This document shows positions 8,094-39,634 of a stretch of 64,000 nucleotides of DNA, piece by piece. The DNA is from Escherichia coli. Its GTDB lineage: Bacteria > Pseudomonadota > Gammaproteobacteria > Enterobacterales > Enterobacteriaceae. Position numbers and translations under genes: made by a program. The DNA lies in assembly GCF_016903815.1 (NCBI RefSeq), contig NZ_CP069973.1. One strand, 5' to 3'. The notes under the pieces are model-generated. The model was not told the DNA's origin and did no database searches. It worked only from the letters and a program-made list of their open reading frames with translations. How positions within the stretch are numbered: the stretch's first letter is position 1; each line of letters opens with the position of its first letter.

Positions 8094-10244
8094 TTAGTGG
8101 TGCGAAGAGATCTTCACGCCGCCTTCCGGGATTGGAACGTACGGTGTTTCTTTGTCAGTACGTTTGTCGCTGTTACGCACCTTCAGCCAGGTTTTGAAAC
8201 CGTAGAAGATGATGCTGTACACCACAATCAGGAACAGAATACTCAGGCCTGCGTTGGTGTAGTTGTTCACAACGATGTGGTTCATGTTGGCAATCTGCTG
8301 CGCCGTCAGGTCAGTACCGTTAGCAATCTTCTCTTTGTACTGGCTCGCCATGTAGAAGAAGCCTTCCATCTGCGGGTTGGTGCTGAACAGTTTCAGGCCC
8401 AGCGCCCAGGTGGTGCAGATAAGCAGCCATACTGCCGGGATAACGGTAACCCAGATGTATTGGGTGCGCTTCATCTTAATCAGTACAACGGTGCCCAGTA
8501 CCAGCGCCACGGCTGCCAGCATCTGGTTGGAGATACCGAACAGCGGCCACAGGCTCTTAACGCCGCCCAGCGGATCGACCACGCCCTGATACAGCAGGTA
8601 GCCCCACAGACCCACACAGCCCGCAGTACCGATGATACCGGCAACCAGAGAGTCGGTTTTTTTCAGGAACGGGATGAAGTTACCCAGCAGGTCTTGCAGC
8701 ATAAAGCGGCCAGAACGGGTACCCGCATCCAGCGCGGTCAGGATGAACAGGGCTTCGAACAGAATACCGAAGTGATACCAGAAGCCCATGTCAGCCATCG
8801 GCAGCACTTTGTGGAACACGTGAGCGATACCTACCGCCAGCGTTGGCGCACCACCTGCACGGTTCAGGACAGAAGGCTCACCAATGTCTTTCGCGGTTTG
8901 CAGGATCTGCTCTGGCGAAATCACGAAGCCCCAGGAGCTGACGGTCGCTGCCGCGTGTGCGGTAACGTCTTTCAGCTGTGCCATGATGATCGGCGCGTTC
9001 TCGCCACCCATTTCATGCAGGTTAGGCATGGTGATGCCGAGGCCAGCAGGCGGGGTGTTCATCGCGAAGTAAAGACCCGGTTCGATGATGGACGCAGCAA
9101 CCAGCGCCATAATCGCCACGAAGGACTCCATCAGCATTGCGCCGTAGCCGATGAAACGCGCGTCGGTTTCATTAGCCAGCAGTTTCGGCGTCGTACCGGA
9201 AGAGATCAGCGCGTGGAAGCCAGATACCGCACCACAGGCGATGGTGATGAACAGGAACGGGAACAGAGCGCCTTTCCACAGCGGGCCAGTACCGTCAATG
9301 TACTGGGTCATGGCAGGCATTTTCAGTTCCGGGTTCAGCACCACGATACCCAGCGCCAGGCCGACGATAACGCCGATTTTCAGGAAGGTTGCCAGATAGT
9401 CGCGCGGTGCGAGGATCAGCCACACTGGCAGCAGTGCGGAAACAAACGCATAGCCAATCAGCGCGAAAGTAATGGTGGTATCTTTAAAGGTCAGTGCCGG
9501 ACCCCAGTACGGATCGTGAGCAATCACGCCACCGAAGTAGATAGAGGCAACCAGCAGCACGATACCAATGACAGAGACTTCACCCACACGCCCCGGACGA
9601 ATAAAGCGCATGTAGATACCCATAAACAGCGCAATCGGTACGGTTGAGCAAACGGTGAAGACCCCCCACGGACTTTCGGCCAGGGCTTTAACCACAATCA
9701 GTGCCAGAACGGCGAGGATGATGATCATGATTAAGAAACAGCCAAACAGCGCGATAGTCCCCGGTACTGGTCCCATCTCTTCTTTGATCATCTCACCAAG
9801 AGATGCGCCGTTACGGCGAGAGGAGATAAACAGCACCATAAAGTCCTGAACCGCACCGGCCAGCACGACCCCCGCCAGCAGCCACAGCGTGCCAGGCAGG
9901 TAGCCCATCTGCGCGGCGAGAACCGGACCCACCAGCGGACCAGCACCGGCGATAGCGGCGAAGTGGTGACCAAACAACACGTAACGGTTGGTCGGAACGT
10001 AGTTCAGACCGTCGTTGTTAATAACCGCAGGCGTCGCGCGCGTGGGGTCGAGTTTCATCACCTTCTGGGCGATGTACAGACTGTAGTAGCGATACGCCAC
10101 CAGATACACCGACACAGAGGCGACCACGATCCACAGGGCGCTGACGTGCTCCCCCCGACGTAATGCAACTACCGCGAGGCAGAATGCACCGATGATTCCG
10201 AGAATCACCCAGGGTATGTGCTTGAATATCTTTTTAGTATCCAT
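8094..10244 (-). CDS. btsT: CstA-family pyruvate/H+ symporter BtsT (YjiY), about 716 aa
   Basis: ORF track 721 aa; start set to the internal Met (MDTKKIFKHIPWVILG) to match the recalled length; multi-pass membrane protein. Confidence 0.85.
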   Translation of the reverse strand: MDTKKIFKHIPWVILGIIGAFCLAVVALRRGEHVSALWIVVASVSVYLVAYRYYSLYIAQKVMKLDPTRATPAVINNDGLNYVPTNRYVLFGHHFAAIAGAGPLVGPVLAAQMGYLPGTLWLLAGVVLAGAVQDFMVLFISSRRNGASLGEMIKEEMGPVPGTIALFGCFLIMIIILAVLALIVVKALAESPWGVFTVCSTVPIALFMGIYMRFIRPGRVGEVSVIGIVLLVASIYFGGVIAHDPYWGPALTFKDTTITFALIGYAFVSALLPVWLILAPRDYLATFLKIGVIVGLALGIVVLNPELKMPAMTQYIDGTGPLWKGALFPFLFITIACGAVSGFHALISSGTTPKLLANETDARFIGYGAMLMESFVAIMALVAASIIEPGLYFAMNTPPAGLGITMPNLHEMGGENAPIIMAQLKDVTAHAAATVSSWGFVISPEQILQTAKDIGEPSVLNRAGGAPTLAVGIAHVFHKVLPMADMGFWYHFGILFEALFILTALDAGTRSGRFMLQDLLGNFIPFLKKTDSLVAGIIGTAGCVGLWGYLLYQGVVDPLGGVKSLWPLFGISNQMLAAVALVLGTVVLIKMKRTQYIWVTVIPAVWLLICTTWALGLKLFSTNPQMEGFFYMASQYKEKIANGTDLTAQQIANMNHIVVNNYTNAGLSILFLIVVYSIIFYGFKTWLKVRNSDKRTDKETPYVPIPEGGVKISSHH

Positions 10245-10453
10245 AGTAAAACCTGGCATGTATTGATTAATAGTTGGCCGAAGCCGTTCTAGGTTTGCGT
10301 TGCGTTTGAGGAGGTAAATTGACCGCTATCCTGCAGTGATGTTGCCAGAGTTACGCGCGCGTAAAGTAAGGTAAATAACTGAGTGGTTATTTTAGGGACG
10401 TAAGCGGTCAGGAATGGCGGTGAGCGGCAAAGGCGTCGTTTAAGTGACCATAA

Positions 10454-10475
10454 ATATGTGATTTATATCACATAT
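10454..10475. promoter_or_regulatory. Near-consensus CRP binding site in the btsT/tsr divergent intergenic region
   Basis: atatgtgatttatatcacatat contains TGTGA-N6-TCACA and matches the 22-bp CRP consensus AAATGTGATCTAGATCACATTT at most positions. Confidence 0.6.
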
Positions 10476-10620
10476 TTATATTGCGAATAATTTATGTAAA
10501 TAATGGCTTTTTAAATTCAGGGGGTGAATAAAATTACTCGGCGTCATCTCCGCGGGATTTTCATAAAGTTTTTCCTTTCCAGGCCGAAAATCTTGCATCG
10601 GTCCACAGGAAAGAGAAACC

Positions 10621-12285
10621 ATGTTAAAACGTATCAAAATTGTGACCAGCCTACTGCTGGTTTTGGCCGTTTTTGGCCTTTTACAACTGACTTCAGGCGG
10701 TCTGTTCTTTAATGCCTTAAAGAACGACAAAGAAAATTTCACTGTTTTACAAACCATTCGCCAGCAGCAATCCACGCTGAATGGCAGCTGGGTCGCTTTG
10801 TTGCAGACGCGTAACACCCTCAACCGCGCGGGTATCCGCTACATGATGGATCAGAACAATATTGGTAGCGGTTCAACCGTTGCTGAGCTGATGCAGAGTG
10901 CCAGTATTTCGCTGAAACAGGCGGAAAAAAACTGGGCGGATTACGAAGCGTTGCCGCGTGACCCGCGTCAGAGCACCGCCGCAGCGGCAGAGATCAAACG
11001 TAATTACGATATTTATCACAATGCGCTGGCGGAGCTGATACAACTGTTAGGTGCAGGCAAAATCAACGAGTTCTTTGATCAGCCGACCCAGGGATATCAG
11101 GACGGTTTCGAGAAGCAGTATGTGGCTTACATGGAGCAAAACGATCGGCTCTATGATATCGCCGTCAGCGATAACAATGCCTCCTACAGCCAGGCGATGT
11201 GGATTCTGGTAGGCGTGATGATCGTCGTACTGGCGGTCATCCTCGCCGTCTGGTTCGGTATTAAAGCCTCGCTGGTAGCGCCAATGAATCGCCTGATTGA
11301 CAGCATTCGTCATATTGCAGGCGGCGATCTAGTGAAACCGATTGAGGTGGATGGCTCTAATGAGATGGGGCAACTGGCAGAGAGTTTGCGCCATATGCAG
11401 GGAGAGCTGATGCGTACCGTCGGTGATGTGCGCAACGGGGCCAATGCCATCTATAGCGGTGCCAGCGAAATCGCCACCGGCAATAACGATCTCTCTTCGC
11501 GCACCGAGCAACAGGCCGCTTCGCTGGAAGAGACGGCAGCCAGCATGGAGCAACTGACCGCAACGGTGAAACAGAATGCCGAAAATGCGCGCCAGGCCAG
11601 CCATCTGGCGTTAAGTGCTTCCGAAACGGCGCAACGCGGCGGCAAAGTGGTGGATAACGTGGTGCAGACCATGCGCGATATCTCCACCAGTTCGCAGAAA
11701 ATCGCCGATATTATCAGCGTAATTGACGGCATTGCCTTCCAGACCAATATTCTGGCTTTGAACGCGGCGGTTGAGGCTGCGCGTGCGGGTGAGCAAGGAC
11801 GCGGTTTTGCGGTGGTCGCGGGAGAAGTGCGTAATCTGGCCCAGCGTAGCGCTCAGGCTGCTCGTGAAATTAAAAGCCTGATTGAAGACTCGGTGGGGAA
11901 AGTGGATGTTGGCTCTACGCTGGTCGAAAGCGCCGGGGAAACAATGGCGGAGATTGTCAGTGCCGTGACCCGCGTGACGGACATTATGGGCGAAATTGCT
12001 TCTGCTTCTGATGAGCAGAGCCGTGGTATCGATCAGGTTGGCTTAGCGGTTGCTGAGATGGACCGGGTAACTCAACAGAACGCCGCGCTGGTGGAAGAAT
12101 CTGCCGCCGCCGCCGCCGCGCTGGAAGAACAGGCCAGTCGCCTGACCGAAGCAGTGGCAGTGTTCCTGATTCAGCAACAGCAGCAACAGCAGCGTGAAGC
12201 ATCGGCTGTGGTAAAAACCGTGACGCCAGCTACGCCGCGCAAAATGGCCGTGGCAGATAGCGAGGAGAACTGGGAAACGTTTTAA
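10621..12285 (+). CDS. tsr: Methyl-accepting chemotaxis protein I, serine chemoreceptor Tsr (554 aa, poly-Gln tract longer than I recall for K-12)
   Basis: ORF track 554 aa; HAMP and methyl-accepting signalling domains; C-terminal NWETF pentapeptide. Confidence 0.92.
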
Positions 12286-39437: not shown

Positions 39438-39634
39438 CTTCTTTTCCTTTTATGCCGAAGGTGATGCGCCATTGTAAGAAGTTTCGTGAAGTTCACTTTG
39501 ATCCTGATGCGTTTGCCACCACTGACGCATTCATTTGAAAGTGAATTATTTGAACCAGATCGCATTACAGTGATGCAAACTTGTAAGTAGATTTCCTTAA
39601 TTGTGATGTATATCGAAGTGTGTTGCGGAGTAGA

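Follow-up and report, generated by a model that had tools for sequence, protein, structure and literature searches.

A near-consensus CRP site in the btsT-tsr spacer of Escherichia coli is very probably an upstream co-activator site of btsT and not of tsr

For several promoters activation by CRP together with a second, pathway-specific activator is known. CRP is centred at -103.5 at uhpT (with UhpA), at -92.5 at rhaBAD (with RhaS) and at -93.5 at araBAD (with AraC). The btsT promoter resembles these three: its pathway-specific activator BtsR is placed next to the -35 region, CRP lies farther upstream and both proteins are required. The fixed spacing of CRP and activator sites, described below for btsT, is likewise comparable to such co-dependent promoters. 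In contrast to them, CRP is centred at -132.5 at btsT, the partner is of the LytTR type and three repeats spaced by 20-21 bp are present; contact would be made through the alpha-CTD, through BtsR or by bending.

A second comparison is given by cstA, which codes for the paralogous pyruvate transporter of the CstA family. This gene is also activated by CRP and controlled by CsrA, and deletion of crp abolished the reporters of both cstA and btsT (PMC7730263). The CRP site of cstA is unusually remote as well, with about 80 nt between it and the start (PMC7730263). The two genes differ in that a BtsR site is missing at cstA and Fis acts there as an additional repressor (PMC7730263), whereas btsT is strictly dependent on BtsS/BtsR. 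On the side of tsr, aer can be compared. According to the abstract of Hollands et al. 2010 (PMC2859248), aer is, like tsr, a gene of the chemoreceptor family with a sigma-28 promoter and a CRP site upstream. There CRP is placed at -49.5 of aer, whereas the CRP site nearest to tsr is about 132 bp away on the upstream side, and many strains and genera lack it.

The closest described system is the yjiY/btsT site of K-12 itself. Its sequence TGTGATTCATATCACA was entered for the yjiY<>tsr spacer in Table S3 of the cAMP-CRP genomic SELEX-chip study (Shimada 2011), which reports in vitro binding to the K-12 allele. In the cross-species CRP predictions of PhyloScan (2007) yjiY was among the top ten, with ranks from 4th to 7th. 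As stated in PMC5431176 and PMC10653868, both citing Kraxenberger 2012, YehT/BtsR-mediated transcription of yjiY also requires cAMP-CRP and is catabolite-repressed. The activity of PbtsT-lux was "completely abolished" by deletion of crp (PMC7730263). The first-pass annotation had given carbon-starvation control of btsT as known, and these three sources bear this out. BtsR and CRP are given as known regulators of yjiY in the Reg-Seq supplement (PMC7567609), which draws on RegulonDB. In main text and supplements of the CRP ChIP-exo study yjiY, btsT and tsr were not mentioned. Since the site and the regulation of btsT are catalogued in the SELEX table, by PhyloScan, in the papers of the Jung laboratory and in the Reg-Seq/RegulonDB entries, neither the site nor its assignment to btsT is new. 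As literature and databases already cover this site and the dependence of btsT on CRP, the significance of the locus beyond annotation is small.

The window, the whole stretch of 64,000 nt analysed here, is E. coli DNA, and several clinical isolates are 100% identical to it. The annotation of identical E. coli genomes gives btsT (yjiY; 8094..10244, minus strand), coding for a pyruvate/H+ symporter of 716 aa, and tsr (10621..12285, plus strand), coding for the serine chemoreceptor of 554 aa. Both genes are divergent and separated by a spacer of 376 bp, for which a scan against Rfam gave no match. Within this spacer the 22-mer ATATGTGATTTATATCACATAT (also written atatgtgatttatatcacatat) was read directly from the window at 10454..10475. 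It was assigned as a CRP binding site, with no strand, by its sequence, the top match of a position weight matrix (PWM), the SELEX entry of K-12 and its conservation. The core TGTGATTTATATCACA (10457-10472, centre 10464.5) has no mismatch to the inverted repeat TGTGA-N6-TCACA and lies inside a 22-bp near-palindrome. Eighteen of 22 positions are identical to the consensus AAATGTGATCTAGATCACATTT, and the dyad symmetry around the site reaches 28 of 30 bases. The centre is 220.5 nt upstream of the ATG of btsT, a gene dependent on crp/cAMP.

The PWM was built from 149 independent SELEX 16-mers (Shimada 2011, Table S3 part 1), and the btsT-tsr site is not among them. With a score of 18.98 (maximum 20.04) the site was the best of the window. 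Among 200 shuffled windows there was no match scoring as high; the shuffle maximum was 13.5 +/- 1.3. Perfect TGTGA-N6-TCACA cores occur twice in the 64-kb window, versus 0.07 expected from dinucleotide-preserving shuffles. Position, perfect core and first rank thus confirm what had been noticed at first reading, a near-consensus CRP site among the best of the window, and its place between two divergent genes was described correctly as well. Compared to K-12, the site has the same locus and position, and the flanking BtsR repeats, the leader and the tsr promoter are alike. The differences are allelic only: one base in the non-contacted 6-bp spacer of the site (TTTATA here, TTCATA in K-12) and a few positions between the first two BtsR repeats, r1 and r2.

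Further good CRP matches were observed elsewhere in the window. The second perfect core, TGTGACGTGGATCACA at 52976-52991, has the second best PWM score (17.5). It is located in a divergent spacer of 132 bp between an aldo/keto reductase gene and a gene for a LysR-family regulator, with an adjoining copy of IS1397 (strain 7/2, 100% identical). At 39549-39617 two good matches, TTTGAACCAGATCGCA and TGTGATGTATATCGAA, lie 53 bp apart. The first of them is the 16-mer given for the yjjI<>deoCABD spacer in Shimada Table S3; presumably, both are the known deo CRP sites.

The layout on the btsT side was obtained from alignments and from a profile of conservation with the CRP centre as reference point. 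In the direction of btsT the CRP half-sites are followed by a spacer of 28 nt, three repeats (r1, r2 and r3) and a conserved block ending with TGGCAACAT. The spacer is unconstrained in sequence, its length is fixed. All three repeats are on the minus strand and are direct repeats resembling BtsR (YehT) half-sites. Repeat r1 (GCCGCTCA on the btsT strand, 10421..10428) was assigned by alignment and by its spacing across loci, r2 (ACCGCTTA, 10401..10408) is a near-invariant block in 55 unique sequences, and r3 (ACCACTCA, 10380..10387) was located by alignments and profile 13 nt downstream of r2. Measured from the CRP centre, their starts are at 37, 57 and 77-78 nt, with a period of 20-21 bp. The motif of YehT is reportedly ACC[G/A]CT[C/T]A, in repeats with N13 spacing. 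Repeat r2 fits this motif, and r2 with r3 probably represents the published YehT site. The number of BtsR-like repeats is three and not two, with r1 conserved to the same degree as the published pair, and in some genera a further repeat was observed 20 bp upstream of r1.

The extended -10-like element TGGCAACAT (10339..10347, minus strand) belongs to a conserved "tctggcaa.at" block and is the putative promoter element of btsT. Its key positions are conserved, and CAACAT is preceded by TGG. The transcription start of btsT was placed at 10332 (minus strand), which corresponds to K-12 position 4591367 and was transferred by alignment. In Reg-Seq file 11 this position is the only experimentally validated start of yjiY, credited to Kraxenberger 2012 and thus a secondary citation, with the remark "CRP outside of area" for the window from -115 to +45. 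Position 10332 is an A, 7 nt downstream of the final T of CAACAT. Counted from this reported start, the CRP centre is at -132.5, r1 at -96/-89, r2 at -76/-69 and r3 at -55/-48, and the leader has 88 nt. In the supplements of the Cappable-seq study, searched by coordinate prefixes, the btsT start was not found.

Two other assignments were rejected. Reg-Seq file 1 gives 4591397 as start of yjiY, a discrepancy of 30 nt to file 11. This start would bring CRP inside the -115 window, against the remark of the supplement itself, and was treated as an error. The hexamer TAAAAT (10389-10394) as -10 element would place CRP at the class I position -82.5. It was discarded because it lies inside the 13-nt spacer of r2 and r3 and because the start 4591367 fits TGGCAACAT. 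In class I promoters CRP acts alone from -61.5, -72.5, -82.5 or -92.5; at btsT the centre is at -132.5, the BtsR repeats intervene and BtsS/BtsR are required. The layout, with sites of a second activator that intervene before the core promoter and keep a constant spacing to CRP, is instead the one expected of a co-dependent (class III-like) promoter. CRP would act here from -132.5, beyond the classical class I and class III positions.

For comparison across Enterobacterales 80 btsT loci were fetched, one genome per species, of which 76 had enough upstream DNA and were analysed. In these 76 loci a strong CRP site precedes the btsT ATG by 187-225 nt; a few of them have it about 125 nt farther upstream. 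In these CRP-bearing loci tsr was adjacent in 22 cases, displaced by 1-1.8 kb in 13 and missing within 3 kb in 41. Hence, btsT has kept the site in 54 loci without tsr as direct neighbour. Where 1-1.8 kb separate the genes (13 loci), it is located on the btsT side, and for 10 of these loci no strong CRP site was detected upstream of tsr. Moderate CRP-like matches upstream of tsr in the other three, Citrobacter loci (PWM 12-13), were not counted; they overlap the start of an inserted ORF of 180 aa.

The distances to both promoters were examined in the same loci. Between CRP centre and r1 37 nt were measured in 45 loci, 36 nt in six and 38 nt in one, together 52 of the 63 loci with the repeat pattern; with the other values the pattern search had picked another repeat pair or none. 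Between CRP centre and the sigma-28 -10 element of tsr the 12 values ranged from 98 to 132 bp and no preference for a helical phase was visible. In the information profile of the 55 unique sequences the CRP half-sites, r1, r2, r3 and the -10 block are conserved. On the tsr side of the CRP site the information content of the same sequences is zero over 50 nt. This comparison shows strong purifying selection, together with btsT and irrespective of tsr, on the CRP site and on its exact distance to the BtsR repeats.

An insertion in the leader was observed in E. albertii. An ERIC-like repeat of about 124 nt (…GTGAATCCCCGGGAGCTTACA…) has been inserted into the 5' leader of btsT, shortly before the start codon (locus L004, about 2870-2990). 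Because of this insert the distance from CRP to ATG is about 340 nt in E. albertii, and the spacing of CRP, BtsR repeats and promoter is untouched. Loci L003 and L013, also with about 340 nt, are presumed to carry a similar insert.

Within E. coli the btsT-tsr spacer is a hotspot of insertion; four arrangements were seen, the direct junction included (L082, L083, L084). The direct junction of the present haplotype was found in 2744 of 5426 complete E. coli genomes. In the remaining genomes the homology ends at 10427/10428, inside r1 (megablast, query position 428 in the island-bearing genomes). Three insertion types were examined, namely a hypothetical ORF of 543 nt (O157:H7), the hpa cluster of 11 kb and a D-amino-acid/RpiR island of 5.9 kb. 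Upstream of r1 each type has DNA of unrelated sequence. All three nevertheless contain a near-consensus CRP site of their own, TGTGATGATGATCACA or TGTGATCTCAATCACA, with PWM scores of 18.5-18.6 and exactly 220.5 nt from the btsT ATG. In the upstream region of tsr of these three types no CRP site was detected (best PWM 3.2-5.9), and tsr keeps only its sigma-28 promoter TAAAGTTT-N11-GCCGA(A/C)AA.

We consider it very probable that the palindrome is the cAMP-CRP operator of btsT (yjiY), a far-upstream co-activator site (-132.5) of the BtsR-dependent promoter, and that it is not an operator of tsr. Of the first-pass interpretation, the near-consensus CRP site and the control of btsT by cAMP-CRP are retained, but the sharing with tsr is not. 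The proposed btsT promoter would consist of CRP at -132.5, the 28-bp spacer, the BtsR repeats from -96 to -48, a weak -35 region, TGGCAACAT, the start at 10332 and the 88-nt leader. CRP would be an upstream co-activator of class III-like type, co-dependent with the LytTR response regulator BtsR. The offset of CRP and r1, fixed at 36-38 bp across genera and across non-homologous haplotypes, indicates a stereospecific arrangement. Co-dependent activation by CRP and BtsR may proceed by cooperative binding and/or by an RNA polymerase contact assisted by bending. CRP could help BtsR to bind stably or in the right position at the neighbouring repeats, or it could bend the DNA, so that the alpha-CTD of RNA polymerase or upstream DNA reaches the promoter. 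The carbon status would thereby gate the pyruvate-induced response of btsT.

For tsr, a sigma-28 (FliA) promoter TAAAGTTT-N11-GCCGAAAA was located at 10564..10590 on the plus strand. It is the only match of the window to TAAAGTTT-N11-GCCGATAA when up to two mismatches are allowed, and has one mismatch. A SELEX peak of the RpoF holoenzyme within the yjiY<>tsr spacer was reported (PMC5493296), and none of the E. coli haplotypes examined has lost the promoter. The start of tsr is probably near 10597. The end of the sigma-28 -10 element is reached 125.5 bp downstream of the CRP centre, which places the centre at about -132.5 from this putative start. tsr would be transcribed from its own sigma-28 promoter, and its catabolite sensitivity would be indirect, by activation of flhDC by CRP. 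In general, motility genes are regarded as catabolite-sensitive through the action of CRP on flhDC, where a CRP site is on record.

The suggestion that btsT and tsr promoters share the site is not supported, since the site follows btsT also without an adjacent tsr, its distance to the BtsR repeats is constant and that to the sigma-28 promoter variable, and the tsr side is unconserved. At shared divergent sites of the type of El-Robh and Busby, the site is kept with both genes and in register with both starts, and this was not found here. The comparative data show a site that is neither required by tsr nor positioned for it. The adjacency of CRP site and tsr in the present strain is best explained by gene order, not by shared regulation, as far as sequence comparison can tell.

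It is improbable that one CRP dimer at 10454-10475 modulates both btsT (sigma-70) and tsr (sigma-28) in the adjacent haplotype. Shimada 2011 listed 11 divergent pairs with a single CRP site, but yjiY-tsr is absent from these pairs. The CRP site is about 132.5 bp from both putative starts in this haplotype, but across genera 98 to 132 bp separate it from the tsr promoter, without phase preference. A direct activation of a sigma-28 promoter by CRP is given for aer in the abstract of PMC2859248, but with CRP at -49.5 compared to about -132 at tsr; at tsr no CRP site was found at the distance of about -49.5 from the sigma-28 start. Furthermore, a CRP site near tsr is lacking in the three insertion types and in most of the Enterobacterales sampled, and the sequence from the CRP site to the tsr promoter is unconserved. 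A report of a tsr reporter with mutated CRP site was not found in the literature searched.

A slightly weaker chance is given to an additional modulation of tsr by CRP in the strains with adjacent genes, by DNA bending, by supercoiling or insulation or by competition for RNA polymerase. In that case cAMP would adjust the level of the serine receptor over and above the FlhDC cascade. Such tuning would be strain-specific and created by gene order, and would not occur in strains with the hpa cluster, the O157 ORF or the D-amino-acid island.

It is distinctly less probable that CRP binds the site and btsT is independent of it, with an indirect dependence on CRP by btsSR expression or cAMP physiology and the site as a non-regulatory or "chromosome-shaping" target. 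A CRP SELEX site is also present upstream of yehU/btsS (Shimada 2011), therefore a part of the phenotype of the crp deletion could be indirect. The regulatory output of many strong CRP sites is unmeasured, and no site-directed mutant of the btsT CRP site was found in the literature searched. Against this reading, both half-sites and, within 1 bp, the distance to the BtsR repeats are conserved across genera and in three non-homologous E. coli haplotypes, while the surroundings vary. This conservation of half-sites and spacing would be hard to explain without a position-dependent function at the btsT promoter. An unannotated CRP-dependent sigma-70 promoter towards tsr in the AT-rich stretch 10475-10511, serving as FliA-independent tsr promoter or for a small transcript, is hardly credible: the consensus scan gave TTTATA-18-AATAAT at 10475-10504 on the plus strand, but two such matches compare to 1.4 expected by chance, AATAAT as -10 element would place CRP near -46.5, which deviates from the class II position -41.5 by half a helical turn, and the stretch is unconserved outside this haplotype and has no Rfam match.

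The assignment to btsT, as a far-upstream co-activator site, gives a clarifying negative result: that a strong regulator site lies between divergent genes is no sufficient reason to assign it to both. Variants of gene order, here four spacer haplotypes of E. coli and 76 loci of Enterobacterales, assign the site without experiment. A modest new point is the exact spacing of CRP and BtsR repeats across non-homologous upstream segments, which predicts a stereospecific co-activation by CRP and BtsR (LytTR).

In the btsT leader a conserved small hairpin with a UUCG tetraloop was observed at 10276-10285 (minus strand, GGCTTCGGCC). It may be linked to the reported control of btsT by CsrA or at the level of translation. 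In the hairpin of Salmonella, AGCTTCGGCT, both sides are changed and the pairing is preserved.
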